DNA of 64,000 bases from a phage. How positions within the stretch are numbered: position 1 is the first letter of the stretch; each line of letters begins with the position of its first letter. A program made the translations under genes and the position numbers. The stretch is from NCBI GenBank assembly GCA_024672275.1, contig GCA_024672275.1_4536.1; one strand, written 5' to 3'. The notes beneath the pieces were generated by a model. The model ran no database searches, was not told the DNA's origin, and saw nothing but the letters and a program-made list of their open reading frames with translations. Shown piece after piece: positions 1,957-64,000 of this stretch.

Positions 1957-2031
1957 GGCCCTGTAGCTCAATGGGAGAGCTGTCGGCTCATAACCGATAG
2001 GTAGCTGGATCGAAACCAGCCAGGGCCACCA
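1957..2031 (+). tRNA. tRNA-Met (anticodon CAT), elongator-type
   Basis: acceptor ggccctg/cagggcc, D-arm gctc..gagc, anticodon loop ctCATaa, T-arm gctgg/ccagc, encoded CCA. Confidence 0.75.
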
Positions 2032-2033
2032 AC

Positions 2034-2108
2034 GTCTTTATGGTGTAATGGATAGCACAGGAGTCTTCTAAACTCTTAGTCAAGGTTCGATTCCTTGTAA
2101 AGACACCA
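2034..2108 (+). tRNA. tRNA-Arg (anticodon TCT)
   Basis: acceptor gtcttta/taaagac, anticodon loop ctTCTaa, T-arm caagg-ttcgatt-ccttg, encoded CCA. Confidence 0.7.
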
Positions 2109-2304
2109 GAACATTTTAACATGAATTAGCTCAAGTGATTTGAACCCACTACTGATCATGGTGGCAGAGAATGAGGCAAGTATGTCAGACATTATAAACA
2201 AAGGCCACGGTTATATTAGAAGACATAAATGCTCGAAGAGCACCGTTCGTTGAGAACGGTGGTTGGTGGAGTCACCATTCATGGTAAAATGTTTTAAAAA
2301 ACTA

Positions 2305-2334
2305 TTGACAACTAACATTATTTTATGTTAGATT
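2305..2334 (+). promoter_or_regulatory. sigma70-like promoter
   Basis: 'actattgaca' -35 at 2305-2310, weak -10 (ttagat/tagatt) 17-18 nt downstream; immediately precedes tRNA-Ser. Confidence 0.4.
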
Positions 2335-2342
2335 ATAAGTAT

Positions 2343-2433
2343 GGAAGGGCAAATCGACGTGGCGACGAAAACGGTCTTGAAAACCGCCGAGCTTGAAAGA
2401 GCCTTGGGAGTTCGACTCTCCCTCCTTCCGCCA
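2343..2433 (+). tRNA. tRNA-Ser (anticodon TGA), type II
   Basis: acceptor ggaaggg/tccttcc, anticodon arm cggtCTTGAAAaccg as in E. coli tRNA-Ser, long variable arm, T-arm gggag-ttcgact-ctccc, CCA. Confidence 0.7.
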
Positions 2434-2437
2434 GATT

Positions 2438-2523
2438 GGTAGATTGGTGAAATGGTAGCCACGACAGTTTGCTAAACTGTAGTCGGAAACGGCGTGTAGG
2501 TTCGAGTCCTACATCTACCGCCA
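2438..2523 (+). tRNA. tRNA-Ser (anticodon GCT), type II
   Basis: acceptor ggtagat/atctacc, anticodon stem acagt/actgt with loop ttGCTaa, long variable arm, T-arm gtagg-ttcgagt-cctac, CCA. Confidence 0.75.
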
Positions 2524-2653
2524 AGTTCTTTTTAATATAGCTTACTTTAATAGAGTAAACTTTCGGCAGATGGCCCCCACCATCTTACCGATACCTCATA
2601 GTTAGTGGTGCGAACACTGGCTATTTTAAAAAGAATTTAAATATTAGTATTTA

Positions 2654-2741
2654 GGTGAGTTAATTCCGTAGGGGTAGCGGGGCAGACTGTAAATCTGTTA
2701 TCATTGCGATTCGGGTGGTTCGACTCCATCACTCACCACCA
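2654..2741 (+). tRNA. tRNA-Tyr (anticodon GTA), type II
   Basis: acceptor ggtgagt/actcacc; anticodon arm gcagaCTGTAAAtctg nearly identical to E. coli tRNA-Tyr; long variable arm; CCA. Confidence 0.8.
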
Positions 2742-2747
2742 AATTAA

Positions 2748-2833
2748 GATGAGTTGGCTGAACGGTTTAAGCGGCGGACTGTTAATCCGTGTTCGAAAGA
2801 ACGATATAGGTTCAAATCCTATACTCATCGCCA
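2748..2833 (+). tRNA. unusual tRNA: Asn anticodon arm (GTT) on a type-II scaffold with long variable-arm hairpin
   Basis: acceptor gatgagt/actcatc (7 bp), 3-bp D-stem, anticodon arm gcggaCTGTTAAtccgt (as in E. coli tRNA-Asn), 15-nt variable arm with gttc-gaaa-gaac hairpin, T-arm atagg-ttcaaat-cctat, CCA. Confidence 0.55.
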
Positions 2834-2840
2834 GAATTAT

Positions 2841-2917
2841 GGACTTGTAGAGTTAAGGTAAACCCCCAGTCGCCAAGAGGCTTCTGGAATTGCAGGTATC
2901 GAATCCTGCCGAGTCCC
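2841..2917 (+). tRNA. tRNA-like element, non-canonical (8-nt T-loop, no clean anticodon arm); possible pseudo-tRNA
   Basis: acceptor-like ggacttg/cgagtcc and T-arm gcagg-tatcgaat-cctgc, but D and anticodon arms do not fold canonically; no encoded CCA. Confidence 0.3.
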
Positions 2918-2923
2918 AGCTTT

Positions 2924-2998
2924 GCTCCTATAGTATAATGGCTATTACAACGGTTTTGTAATCCGTGGATCTCTGTTCGATTCAGAGTGGGAGCACCA
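2924..2998 (+). tRNA. tRNA-Thr (anticodon TGT)
   Basis: acceptor gctccta/tgggagc, anticodon loop ttTGTaa (stem with one U-U mismatch), T-arm ctctg-ttcgatt-cagag, CCA. Confidence 0.6.
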
Positions 2999-3271
2999 AT
3001 ACAACATTAAGGGCACTGTGATTGATCGTCGTATCCTGTGCACAAGGTCTGCTCGAAAGACAGTGTTCTTAGTATTGTGTTGATCACACAAAGAGTTACC
3101 TGAAACTTGACCGGAGTAGGGTTGGATGGGGCAAAAGAAGAAGCGGCTCTCCCATCGACAGCAACGAAGAATAATATTTGACTTTGGTTTTGTATTATTT
3201 TAAGTTAGCTTACCGAACGTAGGGCTAGTCACCCAATGGGATACTCGTCACTGTCCCACTCAATAAAACTA

Positions 3272-3301
3272 TTGACAACCAATAGTAAAATGTAGTATAG
3301 T
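3272..3301 (+). promoter_or_regulatory. sigma70-like promoter
   Basis: 'actattgaca' -35 at 3272-3277, 18-nt spacer, tatagt -10 at 3296-3301; tRNA-Gly starts 12 nt downstream. Confidence 0.55.
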
Positions 3302-3312
3302 AAAGATGTAGG

Positions 3313-3386
3313 GCGTTCTTGGTGTAGCGGTAGCATTCCGTCCTTCCAAGTCGGCGGCACGAGTTCGATCCTCGTAGAACGCTCCA
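3313..3386 (+). tRNA. tRNA-Gly (anticodon TCC)
   Basis: acceptor gcgttct/agaacgc, anticodon loop ctTCCaa, T-arm acgag-ttcgatc-ctcgt, CCA. Confidence 0.8.
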
Positions 3387-3484
3387 AATTATTTAATAAA
3401 GGGTTGCCAGAAAACTTTCTCTTTTACTCATGGTTTTCTCCTTCTCTCACACCTCTTCTGGTTGCCCTTCATTAAATGATTTAT

Positions 3485-3560
3485 TGGTTTGTAGTGTAGT
3501 CCGGTAGCACACGACACTTTGACTGTCGTAGGTTTGGTTCAAATCCAGACAGACCAGCCA
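3485..3560 (+). tRNA. tRNA-Gln (anticodon TTG)
   Basis: acceptor tggtttg/cagacca (U1-A72), D-arm gtgt/acac, anticodon stem cgaca/tgtcg with loop ctTTGac, T-arm tttgg-ttcaaat-ccaga, CCA. Confidence 0.7.
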
Positions 3561-3565
3561 TATAA

Positions 3566-3642
3566 CGGAATTTAGCTCAGTTTGGTAGAGCATACGCTTT
3601 GGGAGCGTAGGGTCGCAGGTTCGAATCCTGCAATTCCGACCA
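3566..3642 (+). tRNA. tRNA-Pro (anticodon TGG)
   Basis: acceptor cggaatt/aattccg, D-arm gctc..gagc, anticodon loop ttTGGga, T-arm gcagg-ttcgaat-cctgc, CCA; close to E. coli tRNA-Pro. Confidence 0.85.
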
Positions 3643-3648
3643 ATCAAA

Positions 3649-3722
3649 TGTTTCGTAGTTCAATGGTAGAACCCACGACTGATAATCGTGAGACACAAGT
3701 TCGATTCTTGTCGAAACAACCA
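3649..3722 (+). tRNA. tRNA-Ile (anticodon GAT)
   Basis: acceptor tgtttcg/cgaaaca, D-arm gttc/gaac, anticodon stem cacga/tcgtg with loop ctGATaa, T-arm acaag-ttcgatt-cttgt, CCA. Confidence 0.8.
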
Positions 3723-3724
3723 GT

Positions 3725-3794
3725 TTCCCGTTAGACTTACAGGATAAGAGTTCCACAACTTATTGTGATGCTGGTTCGAATCCAGCACGGGATA
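3725..3794 (+). tRNA. tRNA-like element with oversized (10-nt) anticodon-region loop; possible pseudo-tRNA or non-canonical tRNA
   Basis: canonical T-arm gctgg-ttcgaat-ccagc and cccg/cggg acceptor pairing; internal stem ataag/cttat encloses agttccacaa; no CCA. Confidence 0.3.
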
Positions 3795-3800
3795 CATAAT

Positions 3801-3879
3801 AGCGGGATAGAGGAGTCTGGTCGTCCTCGCCAGTTTCATATGCTGGAGATCATCGGTTCAAATCCGATTCCCGCCTCCA
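3801..3879 (+). tRNA. tRNA-Met (anticodon CAT), initiator-like
   Basis: anticodon loop ttCATat; T-arm atcgg-ttcaaat-ccgat as in E. coli tRNA-fMet; unpaired A1-C72; CCA encoded. Confidence 0.65.
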
Positions 3880-53057: not shown

Positions 53058-53336
53058 TTAAAATGGTTCGTTAGTCTCCATCATATATTCTGCTTCTAGT
53101 TCTTCCATATGCTTTCTAAATTGGAAAGCAATTTCTGCTACAGTTACATTTAAATCTTTTTCAAAAACTTCTGTAGAGCCTTCATAAAAACGAATACCGT
53201 CAATTAAAAGCCCTCCGTGGTAATCCCAATCACTTTCACGAGAAAGCGGGTTAGGCTCTTCATAATAGTAATCCACCTCCACAACTAAGGCTTTCCCGTT
53301 ACGAGTGGTGTATTCAAAATCAAAAGTGTTAATCAT
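53058..53336 (-). CDS. hypothetical protein (92 aa)
   Basis: ORF with ATGA-type overlap to upstream gene. Confidence 0.45.
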   Translation of the reverse strand: MINTFDFEYTTRNGKALVVEVDYYYEEPNPLSRESDWDYHGGLLIDGIRFYEGSTEVFEKDLNVTVAEIAFQFRKHMEELEAEYMMETNEPF

Positions 53337-54280
53337 TATAGCTCCTCAAATAAAAGTCTACGACGCTCATTCAACACATCAATGTGATAATGAGTCCTGA
53401 CATACTTAGCTAATGCTAATCCTTTCTCCATGCAAACATCGGGAGCACTTAATAAGTATTCCGTAATATCTTTCCACTCGGAAGGTGTTTCAGCAAAGAA
53501 TAACAAATCTTTAAACTCTTGTGTATGATAATTCTCACGAGGAGAACAGATCAAAGGTAAACCCTTAGCACCTGCCTCAAGAATTTTAAGATTGCTTTTT
53601 GCATTATTAAACACGTTATCAATCAATGGCGCAAGACTGATTTGATGACCATCGTAAGATTCCATGTAGTTGGCATATGGTCTTACACCTTCATAAACAC
53701 AAGTTGGTGCTACATTTTCTCTGATTACAGACCATTCACGACTACTTAAAACTTCAGAATCCCTACGAAAACCACATATTGTAAGGTCTTTACCAAAATC
53801 GGGCAAGATAGCCAAATCTTGTTTATGTGTTTCACTTCCAGCCCAGACTAATGGAGTTTTGGAGTAGCGATCACGGGTCAACACAAATTGACCTTCATCG
53901 TAAGGAAGTCCATTAGGGATTATGTGCACATTATCATTGTATTGTGAAAGTTCAACTTGCAAAGCAGGTGTCGTAGTTGTAACAAGATCGCTGTGCTCTA
54001 AAAACCATTTTAAATGTTCACGAATACCTGATTCAAAAATACCTTCTAACATGTGTCCTTTTGGAATAACTAAAGAGTCATCCAAATCCATAACCATTTT
54101 AAAGCCTAGGTTTTTAAGGGCTAAAAAGCCCTCTTTACCTTTTGTTGGCACTCCGTTAAAAACGAAAACGTTGTATTTAGGTTGTGAAGAGAACTGCCTT
54201 GAGTAAGGCAGCACTACCCTATGGAAATCGCAGACACTATAATTGATTCCGTTACGATTGTCAAGAATTATTTGTCCCAT
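53336..54280 (-). CDS. putative glycosyltransferase, GT-B/GT1-like (paralog 1)
   Basis: 314 aa; C-terminal KILEAGAKGLPLICS resembles GT1 E-x-x-A-x-G-x-P motif; paralogous to 54288..55235. Confidence 0.5.
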   Translation of the reverse strand: MGQIILDNRNGINYSVCDFHRVVLPYSRQFSSQPKYNVFVFNGVPTKGKEGFLALKNLGFKMVMDLDDSLVIPKGHMLEGIFESGIREHLKWFLEHSDLVTTTTPALQVELSQYNDNVHIIPNGLPYDEGQFVLTRDRYSKTPLVWAGSETHKQDLAILPDFGKDLTICGFRRDSEVLSSREWSVIRENVAPTCVYEGVRPYANYMESYDGHQISLAPLIDNVFNNAKSNLKILEAGAKGLPLICSPRENYHTQEFKDLLFFAETPSEWKDITEYLLSAPDVCMEKGLALAKYVRTHYHIDVLNERRRLLFEEL

Positions 54281-54287
54281 ACTTCAC

Positions 54288-55235
54288 CTACAAACTTTCA
54301 ATAACCTGGCGTCGCAACTCATTTGCATCTGCCAGATTATAATGTGTTCGAACATGTTCAGCCAAGAACAAGCCACGATCTTCCCGATAGTTTGGATTGC
54401 GAAGAAGCTTAACAATTTCGTAATGCCATTCTGCTTTGTTCTCTGCGTAAGCAACAGCACGAGCATCTACAGGGTTAAAATAAGGTAATACCTTAGAACA
54501 AACAATCGGAATACCCTTTGCTCCAGCTTCTAGGATTTTGAGATTACTTTTACAATTATTAAAATCATTATCTACCAAAGGAGCTATAGCAATAGCATGA
54601 CTTTCGTAAACACTCATGTAATTATCTAAATCTTTTACAGCAGCTTTATATTTAGCATTTGGTAAATTTCTGCGAATCTTAATCCACTCTTGTCCCGTGA
54701 TGCTCTGCGATGCTTCATATCCCGCAATAGTAAGAAGTTCATCATCGAAAGTATTAGAGACTAGTCGTAAATCGGGTTCGTGACTAGCACCGCCAGCCCA
54801 TACAACAGGGGTACCGGATGAACGATCATTTGACAAAGTGAATTGTCCACTATCAAAAGGAAGTGCATTTCGGATCACAACAACATTCCTATTTAAGTGA
54901 CGGATCTTATATGCCAAATATTCTGTAGTCACAATAACCACATCAGCAAGCTTAACCATAGCTACAATAGCATGAGTGTTTGACTCGTATAGACTTGCTA
55001 AATAATGTTCTGGATTAAGTTGGTAGAAATCATCTAAATCTACAACAATCTTAACACCTTGACGTTTCAAAGATAAAACGTATTCTGCACCTTTAGAGTG
55101 GATACGGTTAAACACAACAACATCTTTCTTAGGTTGAAGATTATGGTTGTTAAATGGCATAACAATACGATGATAGTCACAACCGCTGTGAGGTTTTGCA
55201 TCAATTTTTAGTTTAGACCATTTTTTATTTGACAT
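54288..55235 (-). CDS. putative glycosyltransferase, GT-B/GT1-like (paralog 2)
   Basis: 315 aa; shares CDYHR, VVDLDD, PVVWAGG, SNLKILEAGAKGIPIVCS, VRTHY blocks with the adjacent paralog. Confidence 0.5.
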   Translation of the reverse strand: MSNKKWSKLKIDAKPHSGCDYHRIVMPFNNHNLQPKKDVVVFNRIHSKGAEYVLSLKRQGVKIVVDLDDFYQLNPEHYLASLYESNTHAIVAMVKLADVVIVTTEYLAYKIRHLNRNVVVIRNALPFDSGQFTLSNDRSSGTPVVWAGGASHEPDLRLVSNTFDDELLTIAGYEASQSITGQEWIKIRRNLPNAKYKAAVKDLDNYMSVYESHAIAIAPLVDNDFNNCKSNLKILEAGAKGIPIVCSKVLPYFNPVDARAVAYAENKAEWHYEIVKLLRNPNYREDRGLFLAEHVRTHYNLADANELRRQVIESL

Positions 55236-55908
55236 GTGCTAGTGCCTCCTCATAGGAAATTCGGATTTTCCCATTTTTAATATCCTCTAAAGATGCTTTA
55301 TATTCTTCCCAGTTAATCCCGATAGCAGCTTCTTTCTCTTCTTTTGTCAGATTAGCAAAAGGCATAGGATTGTTTCCAAAAACATCGTCTGGGTGGATAT
55401 AAGCCATGATACGAAGTGGACAAGGTGTTGCCTGAATACCATGATTCAAACCAGCAGCTTTCAAACGGTGTCCCCATTCGGCATCTTCAAAACCATAACC
55501 GTGAGTGTAAGGGCGGAAATAACCCATCTTCTCAACAACGGCACGAGAATACATTGCAAATTGACACATTGCAAGTTCCCAGAGAATAACTTCTCCTTTG
55601 CTTCCAACAACTTTATCTTTGAAGTACTCCGGCATACCAAAGAAATCCCATCCTCCAGAAACAGCTTGATCTACAAAGTATGTTTCCCATCCTTCCATGA
55701 CTGGGTAGCAATCGTCGTCAAAAATAAACCAATAATCATAACCTTCTTCATAAAACTGGTGTATAAGTTCATTCCTGGCATAAGCTACACCTTTACGGTC
55801 TGGATCGTTGAATACTCGAAAATCTGCACGTGGATCTGTTACAAGGTAGTCTTTAAGTGGGCGGACACCTACAGTGATAACACCCACTCCGATTTTAATA
55901 TTTTCCAT
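55225..55908 (-). CDS. putative glycosyltransferase, GT-A-like (DxD)
   Basis: 227 aa; GVAYARNELI ... DYWFIFDDDCYP pattern typical of nucleotide-sugar GT-A enzymes. Confidence 0.45.
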   Translation of the reverse strand: MENIKIGVGVITVGVRPLKDYLVTDPRADFRVFNDPDRKGVAYARNELIHQFYEEGYDYWFIFDDDCYPVMEGWETYFVDQAVSGGWDFFGMPEYFKDKVVGSKGEVILWELAMCQFAMYSRAVVEKMGYFRPYTHGYGFEDAEWGHRLKAAGLNHGIQATPCPLRIMAYIHPDDVFGNNPMPFANLTKEEKEAAIGINWEEYKASLEDIKNGKIRISYEEALAHVK

Positions 55909-55916
55909 TTTCTCTC

Positions 55917-56480
55917 CTAAATAGTTTTACTGTGATCGTGACAGTGTAATAAATGATGTATAGACCGTTGAGGATTTGTTTGACCTAATCTGTAAATGTG
56001 AAACAGATACATTCCCCGCATCAATCCTAACCTCTTTCCTTTTTCATGTAAAGTGCGAGAGAAAATTAAGTCGAATTGGATAGATTTTTCTTCAAAAGGA
56101 ATTTCATTCCACAATGATTTTCTAAAAAGCAAAAAGAAACCTGCCAAAGGTGTTCCGAAAGGAACTTCTTCAACACTCACTTTATGATATTCTCTTGCAA
56201 TCTTAGCATATTCTATATGGTTTAGAATATCTGGATCATCGTTAATTTGGTTAGAGAAAAGCTGATAACCACTGCCTAACCTGTTACAAGTTGCACCTAT
56301 TACATCAAAAGGCGGGTTTGACATAACAAGCTCTTCAAGCATAGATGGTTGATCAGGTAGGAGGAACATTGTATCGGTATCTCTTAAACACACCCAACTA
56401 TCATCTGGAAGAACGGCAATGGCTTCATTGATAGCCTTGCCGATATTTCCTGTCAGATAGGGAGTAATATAATAAATCAT
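55917..56480 (-). CDS. putative glycosyltransferase-like protein (second DxD protein)
   Basis: 187 aa; LRDTDTMF DxD-like motif after N-terminal beta-alpha start. Confidence 0.35.
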   Translation of the reverse strand: MIYYITPYLTGNIGKAINEAIAVLPDDSWVCLRDTDTMFLLPDQPSMLEELVMSNPPFDVIGATCNRLGSGYQLFSNQINDDPDILNHIEYAKIAREYHKVSVEEVPFGTPLAGFFLLFRKSLWNEIPFEEKSIQFDLIFSRTLHEKGKRLGLMRGMYLFHIYRLGQTNPQRSIHHLLHCHDHSKTI

Positions 56481-56896: not shown

Positions 56897-57180
56897 CAAT
56901 GAATCTCCCCTAAAATGTTGTTTTGAGACATTACTGCGGAGCATTCTACAGCATCATGAGTCCTTGCAAAACGCTCCCACAACACAGCATCTACTTTAAG
57001 AACCATACAAGGATAAATACTGTCGTTGATCATATCAATGCTATATTTATCTACATCGTTTTCATCTTCCATAAACAAAGTAGCGTATGCTTCTAAATGC
57101 TTACGGGTGTAGTATACATCCTCTTCGGTAAGACCGACAACCAGGTAACTTGCTACAACAACAGTATTATCTTCTTGCAT
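56896..57180 (-). CDS. hypothetical protein (94 aa)
   Basis: ATG 57180..57178 with GGGGAG 5 nt upstream (internal Met of ORF-track 56896..57243). Confidence 0.45.
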   Translation of the reverse strand: MQEDNTVVVASYLVVGLTEEDVYYTRKHLEAYATLFMEDENDVDKYSIDMINDSIYPCMVLKVDAVLWERFARTHDAVECSAVMSQNNILGEIH

Positions 57181-57181
57181 T

Positions 57182-57703
57182 TTAACTCCCCTTTGGTAGA
57201 TAGAAACCATGCACTTTATCTCGATAAACAAGACGCATATCACGTTCCCAGTGTGTCTTTATATTCCGTTTCTTGAAATATAGAGCACCTTTAGTAACAT
57301 CTAAAACAGACCGCAATTCAGGAAAATGTTTCTCTAGATAAAGTAAACGCTCCGCTATTGCTTTTGCTTCCTGCCACTTATCTTTCTCTGTTACGTTAAA
57401 AGTTTTCGCATATGAGAATTGTCCTTTCTGGAACAAGACTCCTCTGACTGTGTTAGGGAAGTAGGTATCATTTCTTCTGTTGATTACCACATTCCCAACG
57501 GCATTCATTCCTTTTTTACCCAGACCGCGACCTTCTGCGTAAATTGCACAAGCTAATAGAATTTTATCATTATATTGCTTTGTACATTTGTGAACTACTT
57601 TAGCGGTTTTTACGTTTGCAGCTTCGGCTTTCGCCACAACAGGTGTAAATGTAAAAGCAGTTAAGGATAGTAACGCAACTGTTACAAAGTTTTTTATCAG
57701 CAA
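57182..57703 (-). CDS. secreted cell-wall hydrolase, SleB/CwlJ-like (candidate signal-peptide endolysin)
   Basis: 173 aa; TTG start with AAGGAGG; N-terminal signal peptide (LLSLTAFTFTPVVAKA); ACAIYAEGRGLGKKGMNAVGNVVINRRN matches SleB/CwlJ core. Confidence 0.65.
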   Translation of the reverse strand: MLIKNFVTVALLSLTAFTFTPVVAKAEAANVKTAKVVHKCTKQYNDKILLACAIYAEGRGLGKKGMNAVGNVVINRRNDTYFPNTVRGVLFQKGQFSYAKTFNVTEKDKWQEAKAIAERLLYLEKHFPELRSVLDVTKGALYFKKRNIKTHWERDMRLVYRDKVHGFYLPKGS

Positions 57704-57735
57704 ATTTTGCCTCCTTTTTAAGTTAACGAATTTCT

Positions 57736-57764
57736 AGTATAACACGATAGAGGCTTTATTGCAA
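57736..57764 (-). promoter_or_regulatory. sigma70-like promoter (minus strand) for hydrolase gene
   Basis: ttgcaa (57764..57759), 17-nt spacer, tatact (57741..57736); preceded by GC hairpin 57765-57784. Confidence 0.55.
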
Positions 57765-57802
57765 GAGGGGGATTTCTCCCCCTCAAAATCATTTGTTAAT
57801 TA

Positions 57803-58405
57803 TTATGGACATTCATACCATTCTTTTTTACCACCGAAGGCCATCACCACATCACAAATATCCAGACCAGCTTTACCTACACCATATGCTTTCAGCTTCC
57901 ATTCCCCATCTTCACGAACCAAGGAAGCCACGTGGCAGATTGTGTTGCCAGCTACTTCAGGAGCCAGGAAGTCAAAATCCAGAATTTCCACATTGCGCTC
58001 GGAGTCAAAGATTTTAAGCATACCTTCAGAAGCATGACCAAAACGTTTCAGACCTGTATCATCATCAATGGTCAGAACAAAGGCAATCTCTTGTGCATCA
58101 GGAGAGATTTTAGCCAGAGTAATATCAATCTGCTCCATGCTGCCAGTTCCATCACGAACATCGTCACCAGCGAAGGTAGAACGTTCAGGATCAAACTTGT
58201 TAGCATAGCAAACCAGGTGACGTGCAGACAGCATTTCAGGATTGCCAGCGGCATTGTGACGACAAACCAGTGCACTTACATCCAGATCCAGTTTAGAATC
58301 AGATTTCCAAGAGAATTCCAGGCGCAGTTCTTTCAGAGCCGGAGCAACTTTCTTCAGGGAAATTTTTTCGCTAGAGCCTTTTTTCAGGGAAATTTTATCA
58401 GTCAT
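57803..58405 (-). CDS. TerD-family protein
   Basis: 200 aa; MTDKISLKKGSSEKISLKK, DLDVSAL, AFVLTIDDD, REDGEWKLKAYGVGKAG align block-for-block with bacterial TerD. Confidence 0.75.
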   Translation of the reverse strand: MTDKISLKKGSSEKISLKKVAPALKELRLEFSWKSDSKLDLDVSALVCRHNAAGNPEMLSARHLVCYANKFDPERSTFAGDDVRDGTGSMEQIDITLAKISPDAQEIAFVLTIDDDTGLKRFGHASEGMLKIFDSERNVEILDFDFLAPEVAGNTICHVASLVREDGEWKLKAYGVGKAGLDICDVVMAFGGKKEWYECP

Positions 58406-58420
58406 CTTTTGTCTCCTCTA

Positions 58421-58690
58421 TTATTTAAGTGTAATACCAGTTACAGTCAATTCTACTTCCAAAAGCTTAGATGTGTTTTGGATTGATACTAATTGTGCAT
58501 GATGGTTTAGTTCTACAGCAGAACAATCATTTTCCCCATCATCTACTTTTAAATAAACAATGATTTCACTAAGGTCTAAACCATTTTCGTCAAATGCATT
58601 TTCATAGACGAAAGTATCTCCTACATCCAAATCTTTAATGGTAAGGCATCGTTTATTTACTTTTTGCTCATCAATTTCGAAGTTTAACAC
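58421..58690 (-). CDS. small partner protein, paralog B of duplicated cassette
   Basis: 89 aa; LDVGDTFVYENAFDENGLD ... VELTVTGITLK; paralogous to 59712..59990. Confidence 0.5.
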   Translation of the reverse strand: MLNFEIDEQKVNKRCLTIKDLDVGDTFVYENAFDENGLDLSEIIVYLKVDDGENDCSAVELNHHAQLVSIQNTSKLLEVELTVTGITLK

Positions 58691-58919
58691 TTCTTCCTCC
58701 TAATGTTATCTCCGGTTTGTATATACGAAGAATTATAGCATTTTCATTTTCTTTGTCAACCCATTCTTCATAATCGGGCCATACATGAATCTCTACTCTA
58801 CTTACAATATCTTCCATTCGCACAGTCCCAATGAAATACTCTTTGAGACTGCGCATAATGAAAGCTTCTCTCTCGCGCCAATAATTTTCTATGACTTGAG
58901 AGGCAAGCTCGTCGATCAT
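58671..58919 (-). CDS. hypothetical protein (82 aa)
   Basis: ORF between the two cassettes. Confidence 0.4.
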   Translation of the reverse strand: MIDELASQVIENYWREREAFIMRSLKEYFIGTVRMEDIVSRVEIHVWPDYEEWVDKENENAIILRIYKPEITLGGRSVKLRN

Positions 58920-59710
58920 TTTTTAGCACCTACTTTAACAACCCACTCTCCGAACTCTTCAGATAAGAGTTTGTCATAAAGCTCTGAATCTGTCAAGTCT
59001 AAATCTTTAATGCCAATAAAACCAACATTATCATAAGCATTTGCCAGTTCTTTCAGGAAGCCGAACTTCTCATTACCAACGCCAACCATGAACCAATAAA
59101 TAGGTTTATTCTTATTCTCTTCGATAAGACGACGAACAGCACTAGGATCACCATTCTCACCATCCGTCTGGAAGAATACAACACCAGGGGTAACGTCAGC
59201 ACCTGGTTCAGATACAGCTACAACCTTTTCACGCTCTACAGATACTGTTTCAGTTTTACCAAGCAGACGATTAAAGAAGCCTTTCTTTGGAGCCTCTTCT
59301 TGTACCACTTGTTTAGTGGTAATATATTTGGTAACAGTGCCAAAATACTCATCGTAGATATCTGCCATTACAGGGGCGTAATTTGTTCCACCTCCGATAC
59401 GAACATTACGCATACATTTACCAACATAGTCATCGTAAACGTCTGCTGTTGCTGGAGTAAGCTCTTGAGAACTCGTATTGAAGGCCCACATGTCAATTTG
59501 TTCATTATCGTCGAACAGCATACCAAAAGGAAGCAGTTTACCTACAAAATCACTCACTACCCCACGAGCATATAGACCATGCATACTACCAGAAATATCT
59601 AAAGCACATGCTACACGAAGAACAATCTTACCTTCATTCAGGTTCTTATTCTTTTTCAGAGAGAAAGCAAGGTTTTCTTGACGTTTTTTCAGGCTGATTT
59701 TCTCGGACAT
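58916..59710 (-). CDS. vWA-domain protein with TerD-like N-terminal leader
   Basis: 264 aa; MIDAS-type ALDISGSM and downstream GGGTNY; N-terminus MSEKISLKKRQENLAFSLKK mirrors the TerD N-terminus. Confidence 0.6.
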   Translation of the reverse strand: MSEKISLKKRQENLAFSLKKNKNLNEGKIVLRVACALDISGSMHGLYARGVVSDFVGKLLPFGMLFDDNEQIDMWAFNTSSQELTPATADVYDDYVGKCMRNVRIGGGTNYAPVMADIYDEYFGTVTKYITTKQVVQEEAPKKGFFNRLLGKTETVSVEREKVVAVSEPGADVTPGVVFFQTDGENGDPSAVRRLIEENKNKPIYWFMVGVGNEKFGFLKELANAYDNVGFIGIKDLDLTDSELYDKLLSEEFGEWVVKVGAKK

Positions 59711-59711
59711 A

Positions 59712-59990
59712 TTATTTCTCCTTCTTAAGTGTAATGTTGGTAACTTCTAAATCTACTTCCACCATATTTGTATCTGGCGGGATGCAATGAGTATATCCTC
59801 GTTGTGCTAGTGATCCATTAATACAGATCGCACTGTTTGTGGAATTTTTAATGAACACCAAGTTACGGTAGGTATCCAACCCTGCGTCTTCATAGGCATC
59901 ATAATACATGAATGTGGCCCCTATGCCAAGATCTTCGAAAGCAATAGGTAAATCCTGACACTTTTCTTCTTGAATATTGAATCTAAACAC
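59712..59990 (-). CDS. small partner protein, paralog A of duplicated cassette
   Basis: GTG 59990..59988 with GAGGAGG upstream (ORF-track start 60056 overlaps upstream gene); LGIGATFMYYDAYEDAGLD ... VDLEVTNITLKKEK. Confidence 0.5.
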   Translation of the reverse strand: MFRFNIQEEKCQDLPIAFEDLGIGATFMYYDAYEDAGLDTYRNLVFIKNSTNSAICINGSLAQRGYTHCIPPDTNMVEVDLEVTNITLKKEK

Positions 59991-60546
59991 GCATACCTCC
60001 TCTACCAATTTTGAAGCCCAAATCGTAAGCTTCCTTAGTGATCTTTTGTAACTCACTTATAGGAAGTGTTACAAGAGGATCATCTTCTTCAATTTCCATC
60101 TTGTCATCTTCTGTTTCAATGAGAGTATTATGCACTTTGTGATAAGGGTTGTCAACACGTTTAAACTTATTCTTTTCTGTGCTGAAAAAACAATCTGGAT
60201 CTTCTTCACCATCACCCCAACCTTGGTTAGGATCTCCGTCAGATTGTTCTGTAGGGATTTCACCTGTAAAGTACTCTTCCAGCACCATAGCAATACCGTC
60301 CCTTGGATTTGAGGAATGCATTAAATCACAAACCTTACCCCAATCCATAGCCCATTCGAACCGTTCACGAACGCCATTTTCATCCTCCTTTCCAGAGAAA
60401 ACACAACCATAACTATCATAGTTGCCATACATCTCTTCAATAACAACACCGTCCTTCAAAAGAAAGAGATAACAAGGTGATCCGTCGAAAGAAGTAGAAA
60501 GGGCAGCTTTGCCCGATTCCTTACACAAAAAACTAAAACAACCCAT
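59983..60546 (-). CDS. hypothetical acidic protein (187 aa)
   Basis: ORF with RBS; Asp/Glu-rich C-terminal half. Confidence 0.45.
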   Translation of the reverse strand: MGCFSFLCKESGKAALSTSFDGSPCYLFLLKDGVVIEEMYGNYDSYGCVFSGKEDENGVRERFEWAMDWGKVCDLMHSSNPRDGIAMVLEEYFTGEIPTEQSDGDPNQGWGDGEEDPDCFFSTEKNKFKRVDNPYHKVHNTLIETEDDKMEIEEDDPLVTLPISELQKITKEAYDLGFKIGRGGMRV

Positions 60547-60944
60547 TACAAACCCTCCTTCAGATTATCAAGAGCTACAGTGGTTTCACAAAAGTCTCCA
60601 TACGTTTTATGATGTTCTAGAAAAGCTTCAGGTCCACCCCAATCATTATCTTGTGTATTCCAGCCATCAATAAAAGCATCTTCAATGATTGTGATCAGTT
60701 CCTGTCGAGTCAACGTAATGGTATCAGGTTTCTGCGTAGTTTCCACACGGAACCCTGGTTCTTCATAAAAACCTTTAGTTACAATGGACTCTAACTCTTC
60801 TGCATCACAGAGGAAGTAGCCACAAAGATAACACCAACCGTCATCATCTTTCATTACTTCATAAACTTCACCACTTGCTAACTTGATGAAAAGAGTAGGG
60901 TCTGTTACTGTAAGTTTTAAAAGAATACCTGTTGGATTATACAT
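60546..60944 (-). CDS. hypothetical protein (132 aa)
   Basis: ATG with GAGGAGGAAG RBS. Confidence 0.45.
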   Translation of the reverse strand: MYNPTGILLKLTVTDPTLFIKLASGEVYEVMKDDDGWCYLCGYFLCDAEELESIVTKGFYEEPGFRVETTQKPDTITLTRQELITIIEDAFIDGWNTQDNDWGGPEAFLEHHKTYGDFCETTVALDNLKEGL

Positions 60945-61110
60945 CTTCTTCCTCCTCTAAAATATGGAACCCGTAATTACAATAATCCTGAAAGGTTTCG
61001 TGTGCAAGATCTTCTATATCCTCTTGAGACATATCATCTTCAATTTCGATATCCACAACCTCATTGCATCCACACCAAGCAGTTTCAATATTCACTCGTA
61101 ATATTTTCAT
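60937..61110 (-). CDS. hypothetical small protein (57 aa)
   Basis: ATG 61110..61108 overlapping upstream stop; ends ILEEEEDV; below ORF-track cutoff. Confidence 0.35.
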   Translation of the reverse strand: MKILRVNIETAWCGCNEVVDIEIEDDMSQEDIEDLAHETFQDYCNYGFHILEEEEDV

Positions 61111-61307
61111 TACTCCTCCTCCTCATTGAAGTCAATATCTGCAAGGAGTTCGAATTTACGGAAGTTACGACAACCTTCATAAATATAACAATCACGACAA
61201 ACTGCTAGAACACTTGGGGGATATATGCCTCCCATCGGCGCGAATCGTTTTTCGTCATCATAACGGACACCAATGTCCTCATCAATTATATAGATACGGA
61301 TTCTCAT
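61110..61307 (-). CDS. hypothetical small Cys-containing protein (65 aa)
   Basis: ORF with start overlapping TelA-like gene stop. Confidence 0.4.
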   Translation of the reverse strand: MRIRIYIIDEDIGVRYDDEKRFAPMGGIYPPSVLAVCRDCYIYEGCRNFRKFELLADIDFNEEEE

Positions 61308-62416
61308 TTACCAAGCCCTCGTTTCACAGCAGCTACCATCCCGTCTTCCAGAGATTGAACTTCGTTAATATAATCAACACGAGCAGCACGGGCTTCCGTA
61401 TTGATGCGGTTAGTTTCTTCCAACATCTTAACCAAGTTTTCCTGATCGTGACGCAGAGTTTCAATATCCAACACTTGACGGTTAGCCAGTGCTGCTGCTT
61501 CGATCTGATTCTGTGTGGCAAGATCGCTACCCAGTTTAATTGCCAGGTTAAATTCATCAAGAACGTTATTCTGCGTCTCTGCTGCTTTCATTTGACGTAA
61601 GCTCTCGATATACATTGAGAAGTTAGCAGAGTAAGCAGGAATAACATTATTTACTATATTACGCGCAGATCGCATTAAGCTTGCAGAAACTTTTTGCATA
61701 CCTTGTACACGCGGTCCCATTTGGACACACAGTAGGCGCAATGCCTTTAAATCTGCAATACGAATCTCCAGAAGATCCAAAGTATCTCGGATCACTTGTC
61801 GCTGTTCTACTGCATCTTCTGGAAGAGCAGCCAAAGCTTGTTCTTCTTTTTCATAGGTTGCTGTTAGAAGCTGCATATCTCGGTTCAAACTTGCAGCATA
61901 TTGTCCAATAGCTTGATGTAGCTTTTCAAGATATACCAAGGAATCTTCTTCTTTGCGAATATCCATTTGAAGGTTCTTTACCAACTCTTCAATACGGTTA
62001 TTAACATTATCAAACTCCCCAAACAGGTCTTCTTTCATACCCATAACTTTTTTAATGAGTTTAGTAATACCCTTGCTTTGTTTAATAGAGTTTGGATCAA
62101 GTTGTTTTGCCTGTTTAATCAAAGCTGTGAGTCGTTCACTCATCTGATCGCCTTGATTACTACGTTGATGTTTTAACACCTCGGCATTCAAGGAACGCAA
62201 GGTTGTTCCTGCCTCTGCCCCAATCTCTTCAATCTCTTGTCGGGTCATAGAAGGCAAAACTGGAACTTCTTGCGGTGCCGCTGGTGCATAAACAGGACTG
62301 GCATCTAACACGCTTGGAGCGAATACAGATTTACTTGCATCTGTTGTTGCAGCGAATACACTCATTTCAGACTTCTTCTGACCACCAGTAGCTGCTTTTA
62401 AAAATGGACTTGTCAT
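61304..62416 (-). CDS. TelA-like (toxic anion resistance family) coiled-coil protein
   Basis: 370 aa, largely helical; size and composition fit TelA/KlaA and it sits next to TerD and vWA genes; family call is inference. Confidence 0.4.
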   Translation of the reverse strand: MTSPFLKAATGGQKKSEMSVFAATTDASKSVFAPSVLDASPVYAPAAPQEVPVLPSMTRQEIEEIGAEAGTTLRSLNAEVLKHQRSNQGDQMSERLTALIKQAKQLDPNSIKQSKGITKLIKKVMGMKEDLFGEFDNVNNRIEELVKNLQMDIRKEEDSLVYLEKLHQAIGQYAASLNRDMQLLTATYEKEEQALAALPEDAVEQRQVIRDTLDLLEIRIADLKALRLLCVQMGPRVQGMQKVSASLMRSARNIVNNVIPAYSANFSMYIESLRQMKAAETQNNVLDEFNLAIKLGSDLATQNQIEAAALANRQVLDIETLRHDQENLVKMLEETNRINTEARAARVDYINEVQSLEDGMVAAVKRGLGK

Positions 62417-63003
62417 TCTTCATTCTCCTCTTCTGCATCTCTTATATATGGTGAAACACCGTACTCTTTAGCTACTTTAACCCAATCATCCCATTTATAC
62501 AACCATAATTTTCCTTCAGTTCCTTCTTTATCTGATTTCAACCACATGTTAGGTTGCTTGCCTGGGTACATGCGATTAGGTTTACGATTATAACCTCTAA
62601 CACATCTTGTCGCAAACCTATCTACCAGAACAAGAACATATTTATATTCGTGGTTCAACGGCTCTTTGGAAGTGGCTTTAGGATTAGCCCCTAACTCTGC
62701 TGCCAGTTTTTGCCAATGAGCACCGTGTCTACTAAACTTACCCATACAACCATCAATAGCATGAGCAATTTCGTGCTTCATTGTATCCACGATCATGTCT
62801 CTTGTGGAGTTCTTATGCAAGTGCCAATTTACAACAACAATTTTATCTCGGTAGTTGCACCAACCGAAAGAGTTATTCACTTTGTTTCTAACACAAGCTT
62901 TATATCCTGCTTCATGTAACATGTTGTAGTAAACAGGAAAATCTTCTTTTATTTCCTGCATCACTTCCCACCACAAGAGTTGCAAGTCTCTCTCGGTATG
63001 CAT
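62413..63003 (-). CDS. SprT-like zinc metalloprotease domain protein
   Basis: 196 aa; HEIAHAIDG ... HGAHW matches SprT-like HExxH ... HGxxW arrangement. Confidence 0.6.
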   Translation of the reverse strand: MHTERDLQLLWWEVMQEIKEDFPVYYNMLHEAGYKACVRNKVNNSFGWCNYRDKIVVVNWHLHKNSTRDMIVDTMKHEIAHAIDGCMGKFSRHGAHWQKLAAELGANPKATSKEPLNHEYKYVLVLVDRFATRCVRGYNRKPNRMYPGKQPNMWLKSDKEGTEGKLWLYKWDDWVKVAKEYGVSPYIRDAEEENEE

Positions 63004-63006
63004 AAC

Positions 63007-63600
63007 TTACACCTTAAAAGCGAAATGCGTGGTCGTGGCTTCAAAATCAGGGCCAGATAAACTTGCACTGAAATCTGAAATATTTGTAATTAAAAAGCTT
63101 TTATGCATACCTAACACAGCCACGCTTTCAATATCTTCTACTAACATTTCAATCATGTTAGAAACATGGCTGAACGTATAGTTTTGTTTTTTGATGGTGT
63201 AGAAAGAAAGACTCCCACCTGCTGTATAAGATACCTCTTCAAAATCTTTAATCGTATATTGTGTGCCATCAGTAAAGAAAATGGTAGCTTTATTAGTAGC
63301 ACGTTTCTTGTTTTTTGGTCCTTTTTTACGTTTACTGCGAGTAGGCAAACCGTTTGGGAACACCGTAGCTACAAATTCTTCAGGGGAAACCTCCTTACCG
63401 AAATCATAACCGTAAGAAACAGCGTCTATAAACTCGTCGTCTTCATTTTTAAAATAATGAAAATAGGGCCAATTTGAGAGATTATCAAGCATCTTATGCT
63501 CATCCACAGCAGAGAACGTATCTCTCAAAGCACGTGTGATTTGTAAAGCATTAGGCAAACTTTTAACACCTGTAATGGAAGTACGAATAGAAATTGTCAT
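63007..63600 (-). CDS. hypothetical protein (197 aa)
   Basis: ORF with RBS upstream of SprT-like gene. Confidence 0.45.
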   Translation of the reverse strand: MTISIRTSITGVKSLPNALQITRALRDTFSAVDEHKMLDNLSNWPYFHYFKNEDDEFIDAVSYGYDFGKEVSPEEFVATVFPNGLPTRSKRKKGPKNKKRATNKATIFFTDGTQYTIKDFEEVSYTAGGSLSFYTIKKQNYTFSHVSNMIEMLVEDIESVAVLGMHKSFLITNISDFSASLSGPDFEATTTHFAFKV

Positions 63601-63614
63601 TGTTTTTCTCCTTA

Positions 63615-64000
63615 TTAACGTCGCTTGCTACGAGATGAACTCTTTTTACTTAAAGGGCTATTGTAAGATTTACGAGTTGTATAGCTACTATTTGTTTTAA
63701 AAGTCTGTCTCGGCTTTTCATAAGTTTTTATCTCTTGTTTAGGCTTACCATAAAAATTAGTTTTCGGTTTAGGTGTATTATAATGCTTATTAATAATCGT
63801 TCTGTTATCGTTATAATCCCCACTGCTACGATTACTACCGCCACTCATCATATGCCCTAACAACATACCTGTAGCAAACTCACCAACACCGCTACTACTA
63901 GAACCGCCACCATTGTTGATAATAGTTGTATCTCCGTCAGATCCTTGTTGAGCGTATTGTTGAGGAGGTTGTTGGTATTGTGCAGGATTTGTTTCATCCT
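63615..64000 (-). CDS. hypothetical low-complexity protein (Gln/Pro-rich N-region, Ser/Lys/Arg-rich C-terminus), possibly 5'-truncated by the window
   Basis: reading frame is open from the window end down to stop at 63615; first in-window ATG at 63866. Confidence 0.3.
   Translation of the reverse strand, partial: DETNPAQYQQPPQQYAQQGSDGDTTIINNGGGSSSSGVGEFATGMLLGHMMSGGSNRSSGDYNDNRTIINKHYNTPKPKTNFYGKPKQEIKTYEKPRQTFKTNSSYTTRKSYNSPLSKKSSSRSKRR

Follow-up and report, generated by a model that had tools for sequence, protein, structure and literature searches.

What are genes of the tellurite-resistance (Ter) kind doing in a virulent phage? The question is raised by positions 57,803 to 63,003 of a 64,000-nucleotide stretch of phage DNA (contig GCA_024672275.1_4536.1; the whole stretch is 'the window' in what follows). 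An initial annotation, made from the letters of the DNA alone, described there a TerD-family protein, a vWA protein with a metal-ion-dependent adhesion site (MIDAS), a helical TelA-like protein and an SprT-like protease. It treated these as an unexpected four-gene module, perhaps for host takeover or superinfection exclusion. What the genes are can now be stated with near-certainty. We hold with moderate confidence, from the combined analysis, that the region makes up the downstream two-thirds of a Ter-type system encoded by the phage, and that this system would close the envelope of an infected cell to superinfecting phages and to colicins. The biological role taken by itself—exclusion of such phages and colicins—we put forward a little more tentatively than that.

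The window belongs to a Phapecoctavirus, a phAPEC8-like virulent myovirus of E. coli within the Stephanstirmvirinae, with a genome of ~150 kb. Positions 57000–63700 align over their full length, at 98.6–98.8% identity, with phages BI-EHEC, Mt1B1_P17 and phAPEC8, and 65 records span at least 80% of that interval. The TerD, vWA, TelA and SprT-like open reading frames (ORFs) are all on the minus strand, where they had first been placed (Table 1). Genes of the Ter region are co-directional and densely packed, with overlaps of 1–20 nt or gaps of 1–15 nt, and the Ter genes themselves are scattered across ~12 kb between uncharacterised ORFs. Families were called at the curated Pfam cutoffs, and with PHROGs, NCBIfam and PADLOC profiles; family distributions were counted across 50,697 phage records. 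Comparison loci, IMG/VR relatives among them, are labelled L001 onward, L001 being phage EF1-1, L003 Klebsiella phage 05F01 and L004 phiPsa374.

All four proteins of the initial annotation hold up under profile-HMM (hidden Markov model) search, with Pfam E-values from 5e-9 to 1e-37 and every bit score above its cutoff. The TerD protein scores 98.9 bits (cutoff 25.3), its residues 5–179 covering profile positions 3–177 of 187, and its alignment with the solved TerD of Klebsiella (PDB 2kxt, 1.5e-15) runs over the whole length. At its N-terminus is a double motif, KISLKK-x5-KISLKK (58349–58396, minus strand). Further on, at 58130–58168 (minus strand), comes a loop of the Ca-binding type, GDDVRDGTGSMEQ, shorter and less acidic than the canonical GDNRTGEGDGDDE. 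Throughout the clade this loop, GDDVRDGTG---SMEQ when aligned, has a three-residue deletion and has exchanged DDE for ME (KE in 05F01 and L009), while DDE is retained in the TerD proteins of phiPsa374, CcrSC and a Neobacillus prophage. In the solved Klebsiella protein we take the acidic loop to have a calcium-binding role. The canonical form, GDN(R)TG-x-G-x-G-DDE, is thus one that the window's TerD does not have, but it is not defining for PF02342. A second TerD was looked for in phi92 gp171 and dismissed: the protein is 13% identical and has no Pfam match.

The vWA protein scores 130.4 bits against PF10138 (cutoff 29.4). Its AlphaFold2 (AF2) model is good (predicted local distance difference test, pLDDT, 88; predicted template modelling score, pTM, 0.79), and a Foldseek search of the PDB with this model returns 139 hits (E≤1e-3), to I-domains of integrins and vWA domains of the copine type. 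The MIDAS, with its DxSxS motif at 59585–59599 (minus strand), comprises D38-x-S40-x-S42, T109 and D183; across 27 homologs S40 is nearly invariant and the other four residues do not vary. Predicted structure and conserved residues therefore bear out the vWA/MIDAS assignment. Likewise invariant in the 27 sequences are L7, L18 and K20. The protein opens with a conserved leader, KISLKKRQENLAFSLKK (59651–59701, minus strand), that resembles the N-terminal motif of TerD. It is not TerF proper, since it has no PF02342 match and shares with TerD only this 17-residue leader; true TerD–vWA fusions are ~457 amino acids (aa) long and ~30% identical to it. We refer to it, instead, as a solo vWA-TerF-like protein. 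Its only 'bacterial' close homolog, in Neobacillus vireti, sits in a prophage-like region with the order TerD–vWA–TerC.

The TelA-family protein scores 115.7 bits against PF05816 (cutoff 30), with residues 59–361 spanning profile positions 13–327 of 332. The helical character ascribed to it at the outset is borne out by its AF2 model (pLDDT 72.5, pTM 0.46), which is entirely alpha-helical; the helices are very long, and the first ~55 residues are disordered. Searched by sequence against the sequences of the PDB, it gave no match. Weak matches to the ClyA family of pore-forming toxins (MakA, AhlC, ClyA, YaxB, NheA and Hbl) recurred at TM-scores of 0.2–0.35; they were set aside because long helical bundles match promiscuously and the pTM is 0.46, and the literature search found no paper connecting TelA with ClyA.

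The set does not end with the window. Genes beyond position 64000 were read from the near-identical phage EF1-1 (98.7% identity over the aligning 97% of the region), and in such near-identical genomes a TerC of the Alx type, a HAD phosphatase and a PRTase_3 protein lie 0.4–3 kb past the window's end. TerC lies ~430 nt beyond that end in EF1-1; it matches PF03741 (3e-40) and, with 319 bits (cutoff 246), the NCBIfam TerC/Alx metal-homeostasis subfamily TIGR03718. In 05F01 this protein is replaced by a DUF475/TerC-related membrane protein. PRTase_3 is equally clear (PF15610, 1.7e-41); the HAD-type hydrolase matches weakly (Pfam 0.0004, NCBIfam 1.9e-8). The two are directly adjacent in 8 of the 8 carriers among the first sixteen loci. 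Of the components that PMC7824862 lists for Ter systems, therefore, TerD, TelA and a TerF-type vWA are found within the window, and TerC, PRTase and HAD beyond it; TerB had no match among the 30 ORFs scanned. A macrodomain protein adjoins PRTase_3 (L001 14721–15194, ~1.9 kb past the window's end). It is closest to the DarG DNA-ADP-ribosyl-glycohydrolase, far below cutoff (NCBIfam 2e-8; Pfam Macro 6e-5), has a homolog near the phiPsa374 Ter hub (L004 5882–6388, E=2.7e-31), and by its sequence is a candidate anti-DarT factor.

The linkage of TerD, vWA and TelA is conserved in related phages. The backbone TerC…TelA…vWA-TerD is kept in Phapecoctavirus, in the phi92-like Justusliebigvirus (TelA 79% and TerD 81% identical to those of the window), in 05F01 (TelA 41%) and in a divergent 144-kb metagenomic phage; IMG/VR relatives hold the same backbone as far as each locus reaches, and in Stephanstirmvirinae-type loci HAD–PRTase_3 lies within 13 kb wherever the locus extends far enough. 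In unrelated phages the same families recur in other arrangements: a compact TelA–vWA–TerC–TerD hub in phiPsa374, CcrSC and Kikimora; a contiguous TerC-x-TerD-x-vWA-HAD-PRTase_3 in L010 and L011; TelA–vWA followed by HAD–PRTase_3–TerD in L031; and TerD-x-vWA-TerC in an Acinetobacter phage. (Unannotated genes of 390–400 aa in L011 were considered as divergent TelA and rejected, with an hhalign probability below 1%.) Among phage records, TelA occurs in 223, vWA in 213, TerC in 175, PRTase_3 in 157 and TerD in 146, with strongly overlapping taxonomic distributions; seven Brevundimonas records each have all five families, as do the Stephanstirmvirinae. What unrelated phages share, then, is a core of TelA, vWA-TerF, TerC and TerD, to which HAD and PRTase_3 are often joined. 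This amends the four-gene module first described, which missed TerC, HAD and PRTase_3 past the window's end and counted SprT as a member when it does not belong to the core. The closest relatives of vWA and TelA are nearly all on phage-sized contigs, which marks the set as an old one of phages and not a recent pick-up from a host.

The shared KISLKK start of TerD and vWA, noticed in the window at the outset, is real, and it proves to be one instance of a wider pattern. Across 15 lineages, the solo vWA has as its first 'phi-x-phi-x-K' motif a copy of the TerD motif of its own genome, while the motif itself varies among lineages. Thus ISLKK in TerD is paired with ISLKK in vWA, VSLKK with VSLKK, LSVEK with LSVEK, INLEK with INLEK, and FNLNK with FNLSK; further pairs are FDLDK/FDLEK, FDLCK/FDLVK, LTLEK/LSLEK and LDLEK/LDLGK. 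Leader residues are identical within genomes at 62 of 75 positions, against 39.5±3.2 in permuted pairings, a value reached in 0 of 200,000 permutations; at the three variable positions alone the figures are 32 of 45 and 11.3±3.1. Phylogeny is not taken into account in the permutation test, and genomes differ in their amino-acid composition. Codons are shared at only 27 of 45 identical leader residues (11 pairs), and in three lineages the leader serine is TCC in TerD and AGC or AGT in vWA. These differing codons indicate that the match is held at the level of protein and does not stem from recent gene conversion. Older, recurrent conversion between the neighbouring genes, followed by synonymous drift, is an alternative source of the match, one that would carry no functional meaning.

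The covariation suggests, as far as sequences go, a physical coupling of TerD and vWA. It is possible, and rather short of probable, that the matching N-terminal tags form a co-evolving assembly or targeting signal, by which the two proteins would dock on a shared, lineage-specific partner such as TerC or TelA, or else on each other. In the monomer model, leader residues 7–20 of vWA are a helix; the same motif opens the TerD domain aligned to 2kxt. A TerD-like beta-hairpin for the vWA leader is thus unsupported by that model, although a complex could differ. We found no earlier description of this covariation in a literature search that did not extend to the founding 2012 Ter paper (Anantharaman).

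That Ter genes occur in phages of this kind is already known, and the superinfection-exclusion idea is already in print. Taha et al. (2018; PMC6141743) reported four tellurite-resistance-related genes in phage ZCKP1, whose TelA and TerD are 100% identical to the window's, and proposed a role in protection from superinfection and colicins. The phi92 record annotates TelA, TerC and TerD-like genes, and other GenBank records name Ter genes as well; between ZCKP1, phAPEC8, phi92 and the window the gene set is essentially the same, with no difference in the genes themselves. Iyer, Anantharaman and Aravind (2021; PMC7824862) reviewed the Ter systems of jumbo phages and of smaller phages related to them, including Acinetobacter phage ME3 and Caulobacter jumbo phages. 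Their systems have the same parts (TerD, TerC, TerF-type vWA and TelA, with PRTase and HAD in the 'relatively complete' version) and the same proposed role, competition with superinfecting phages, which is the leading published idea for phage Ter genes (PMC6141743, PMC7824862). They are compact operons of jumbo phages, however, whereas the present phage is not jumbo, its genes are dispersed and its TerD acidic loop is degenerate. In the phiKp34 paper (PMC8386662) the same hub is noted, with Frampton et al. 2014 cited for its presence in virulent phages. To call the combination unexpected was thus an overstatement. Added here beyond ZCKP1, phAPEC8 and phi92 are the HAD/PRTase_3 link, the clade restriction of SprT, the duplication of a small gene together with a promoter, and the covariation of the leaders; the last, together with the status of SprT, the HAD and PRTase_3 link in this subfamily and the degenerate TerD loop, may be new.

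In phiPsa374 and CcrSC, TelA, vWA-TerF-like, TerC and TerD are all present, and the vWA has the same MIDAS motif and an N-terminal leader, but each hub forms an unbroken operon in which TerC separates vWA from TerD, the proteins are only 21–31% identical to the window's, and no SprT, phrog_11278 or PRTase_3 gene is nearby; NAD-salvage genes are found there, instead. The bacterial and plasmid terZABCDEF operons (IncHI2 R478, E. coli O157, Klebsiella) share TerC, TerD-domain proteins and a TerF-type vWA. In the operon protein, a whole TerD domain is fused to vWA, whereas the window's vWA is solo, with the TerD-like leader only. TelA traces to a separate bacterial locus, kilA/telAB of RK2, as cited in PMC8386662. 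For terZABCDEF, PMC12054061 reports inhibition of phages and resistance to colicins and tellurite, relates that insertions in terZ, terC and terD abolish phage inhibition and colicin resistance, and gives TerC–TerD as the minimal unit, with larger plaques upon deletion of terC in Klebsiella.

How such a system might work can be sketched. Host RNA polymerase would transcribe the Ter genes during infection, from sigma-70-type promoters such as those listed in Table 1. The phage TerC, placed in the inner membrane, would alter the handling of divalent metals, to judge from its membership of the TerC/Alx family. TerD and vWA would assemble beneath it, held there by the matching N-terminal tags, which would dock either on one shared partner or against each other; TelA would supply a helical sub-membrane layer; and a nucleoside-like ligand might come from HAD and PRTase_3. 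Rival phages and colicins would then be kept out at the envelope for as long as the resident phage needs the cell, an effect of the kind reported for bacterial and plasmid ter loci.

Several observations weigh against this reading. Four proteins of the classical operon, TerB, TerZ, TerA and TerE, did not turn up when the region was scanned, so the phenotypes of terZABCDE may not transfer. In the clade's TerD two of the three acids of DDE are gone, and with the loop thus degenerate, metal binding may differ from that of the solved TerD. The TelA model, itself only moderately confident, matched no PDB fold at E≤1e-3. Both promoters are consensus matches only. Ten proteins compared with the PADLOC defence models, TerY-P among them, gave no significant match, and the literature search found no experiment on any phage Ter gene. 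Finally, the Ter genes are interleaved with many uncharacterised ORFs (in 05F01 with nrdD and nrdG, too), and part of their linkage may be simple inheritance within one clade.

Alternatives fall short in different ways. The Ter set could serve the phage's own cycle, instead, buffering envelope and metal-ion stress and keeping the membrane energised; it would prevent premature release of the endolysin, or block membrane-damaging abortive-infection effectors that kill the cell before progeny are made. We think this unlikely, although it would suit the assignment of TerC to an Alx-type 'metal homeostasis membrane protein' subfamily, and an all-helical TelA whose weak structural neighbours are membrane-active helical bundles. 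It would also suit the Jug jumbo phages, in which terD is paired with a pspA-like membrane-repair gene and both are highly transcribed (PMC12880540). An endolysin is close by, moreover: the SleB-type cell-wall hydrolase of the window has a hydrophobic, signal-like N-terminus (MLIKNFVTVALLSLTAFTFTPVVAKAEA), and among the Stephanstirmvirinae-related loci examined it always lies 3′ of TerD, next to it or with at least one gene between. This adjacency is confined to one clade, however, and may be inherited synteny; for TelA there is no significant fold match, and for stabilisation of membranes by Ter proteins no direct evidence. More doubtful again is a counter-defence or metabolic island, made up of the Ter hub with PRTase_3, HAD, the macrodomain protein and, in other phages, enzymes of NAD salvage, that neutralises immunity based on depletion of nicotinamide adenine dinucleotide (NAD) or on ADP-ribosylation, or that interferes with the Ter systems of hosts. 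NAD-related genes do lie by Ter hubs or the PRTase_3 pair in five unrelated loci, and the DarG-like macrodomain stands beside PRTase_3 in the clade and has its homolog in phiPsa374. But adjacency within accessory regions is a weak sign of shared function, and no Ter protein here matches a known anti-defence family. To our knowledge the E. coli K-12 hosts of many such phages are without a ter operon, so an anti-Ter role cannot be general.

The four genes first described might form a self-contained module, with the SprT-like protease as effector, or as processing enzyme for TelA, vWA and TerD. The protein is genuine enough: it scores 36.4 bits against PF10263 (cutoff 25.6), and its HExxH (H77-E78-I-A-H81) is followed by H93-G-A-H96-W. 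Against the E. coli SprT equivalog model it reaches only 21 bits where 175 are needed, which makes it a member of the family and not a SprT ortholog. Its stop codon overlaps the TelA start by 4 nt, and in several diverged sub-lineages (the window, L017, L019, L021–23, L026–27 and 05F01) it adjoins TelA or lies at most two genes off. Yet no such gene was found in phi92-like phages, in L002, L018, L020, L024, L009 or L028, or in any of the 12 distant Ter loci examined; L009 has an RNA ligase at its position; and no SprT match falls in the 60–90% identity band, though phi92-type TelA, TerD and vWA homologs do. The remaining SprT-like homologs belong to T4-like phages of Klebsiella, Vibrio and Enterobacter, none of them seen in the TelA tallies or among the matches listed. 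We read the protein, from its distribution, as a neighbour peculiar to this clade that stands outside the Ter core; that it takes part in the Ter module is improbable, and the self-contained module is improbable to the same degree. That there is no system at all, just unrelated homologs hitch-hiking together, is disfavoured and seems very improbable indeed. The many interspersed uncharacterised ORFs would allow it, but the same families come together in unrelated phage groups in different gene orders, and unless the two genes are linked by function or by recombination, the within-genome covariation of the TerD and vWA motifs is difficult to account for. A phage-encoded Ter-type system directed at rival phages and colicins thus remains the reading we prefer.

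Table 1. Features of the Ter region and its boundaries in the window (E-values follow the family names)
Feature	Positions	Strand	Length (aa)	Match or basis
SleB-type cell-wall hydrolase (endolysin); boundary gene, not claimed as part of the Ter set	57182..57703	-		PF07486 1.5e-17
TerD-domain protein	57803..58405	-	200	PF02342 3.2e-28
Small protein, paralog a	58421..58690	-	89	phrog_11278 2.6e-45
Protein between vWA and paralog a	58671..58919	-	82	phrog_22387 8.4e-58
Sigma-70 consensus promoter (TTGACA, 16 nt, TG-n-TATAAT)	58732..58759	-		12/12, extended -10
Solo vWA-TerF-like protein	58916..59710	-	264	PF10138 1.3e-37
Small protein, paralog b, directly upstream of vWA	59712..59990	-		phrog_11278 5.9e-48, residues 24-114 of a longer ORF
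Protein between TelA and vWA	59983..60546	-	187	phrog_14928 2.4e-125
Promoter-like site (TTGACA, 17 nt, CATAAT), upstream of paralog b and vWA	60127..60155	-		11/12 match
132-aa protein	60546..60944	-	132	phrog_14200 on residues 67-132
TelA-family protein	61304..62416	-	370	PF05816 3.2e-33; phrog_5890 1.6e-139
SprT-like zinc metalloprotease-type protein	62413..63003	-	196	PF10263 5e-9; HExxH at 62761-62775
197-aa protein	63007..63600	-	197	phrog_27550 6.9e-138

Between and around the Ter genes are smaller ones (Table 1). Two are paralogs, 31% identical (E=3e-14). Paralog b is kept before vWA in Phapecoctavirus, phi92-like phages and 05F01; its 114-aa ORF (59712–60056) most likely starts, judging by the sequence, at a GTG at 59990, after a GGAGG site. 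Paralog a likewise has a GTG start after GGAGG; it ends in ITLK, 15 nt before TerD, and this extra copy was observed only in Phapecoctavirus (the window and L001) and the closely related L017. In the EF1-1 record (L001 7422–7691) it is called an 'RNA ligase', for which neither Pfam nor PHROGs gives support. Genes of 110 aa upstream of vWA in L009, and of small size between TelA and vWA in phiPsa374, were compared with this family and rejected as homologs. In phi92 and 05F01 the interval between vWA and TerD has no annotated gene; the insertion in the window consists of paralog a, the 82-aa ORF and the 58732–58759 promoter, which lies inside the 3′ part of that ORF. The -10 hexamer of this promoter ends 41 bases before the GTG of paralog a, and the site is the sole exact match in the 64-kb window, where 0.05 would be expected and at least one appeared in 4 of 100 shuffles.

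The 187-aa protein recurs in Phapecoctavirus and phi92-like loci, with homologs in L002, L017 and L024, and has no Pfam, NCBIfam or PADLOC match. In its 132-aa neighbour, conservation across the clade is confined to the C-terminal ~66 aa, and short homologs lie just downstream of TelA in L001–L003, L017–L020 and L024. The ORF is about twice as long as its EF1-1 counterpart (67 aa), its N-terminal half has sub-threshold SH3 matches only, and the same positions, 60546–60944, are where the window departs by ~200 bp from several of its close relatives (97% coverage). Most of the clade's loci (L001–L003, L017–L024) have a homolog of the 197-aa protein upstream of TelA, with or without SprT between them; such homologs were not detected in L009 or L026–L028. 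In 05F01 an extra 388-aa gene of no matching family (L003 12828–13994) separates the 193-aa gene from TelA. Marginal PADLOC matches, SspF at 0.0064 and PglX at 0.0017, fell to the SprT-like and 197-aa proteins.

Farther afield, the window has a tRNA block at 1957–3879, long ORFs on the plus strand up to ~44 kb and minus-strand genes from there on; neighbouring genes in phi92 and EF1-1 are annotated as DNA polymerase, primase/helicase and NrdD/NrdG. Downstream of the endolysin, at 53336–56480 (minus strand), are four consecutive glycosyltransferase-like genes, one with a weak, below-cutoff match to the TET-associated glycosyltransferase family (E=0.0015). They might act on host surface polysaccharide or on DNA; surface modification against superinfection was suggested in the ZCKP1 paper (PMC6141743). 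Genes of NAD metabolism lie by Ter hubs or HAD–PRTase_3 at L006 9404–13928, L004 1818–12460, L005 10055–21026, L011 3376–13612 and L016 4093–6420. They include a phosphoribosyl-pyrophosphate-synthetase-like gene and NAMPT in the Neobacillus prophage region and phiPsa374, NadM and NAMPT in CcrSC, a nicotinamide mononucleotide (NMN) transporter and NadR-like AAA_28 in L011, and an NMN adenylyltransferase/Nudix gene that adjoins HAD–PRTase_3 in Rhizobium phage RHph_TM61. Such adjacency could be a coincidence of accessory regions, or the product of PRTase_3 and HAD could be nicotinamide-related. Five records named for Campylobacter, Acinetobacter and Pseudomonas phages (MG065650, MG065656, MG065689, OP562383 and OR584014) carry the region at 79–99% protein identity to E. 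coli Stephanstirmvirinae; their host labels look doubtful, and contamination or mis-assignment may be the cause.

As a discovery of Ter genes, all this is confirmatory. Its value lies elsewhere. The role of the Ter system has been unclear for decades, and a virulent phage that carries a minimal, host-independent set—TerC, TerD, vWA, TelA, HAD and PRTase_3—offers a clean background for genetic tests. The covariation of the TerD and vWA leaders provides a specific and cheap hypothesis about assembly of the complex and, if true, the first sequence-level handle on how the Ter complex is built. Phapecoctavirus and Justusliebigvirus phages are also used in therapy cocktails, so genes that alter the envelope, the handling of metals, or interactions with co-administered phages are of relevance there.

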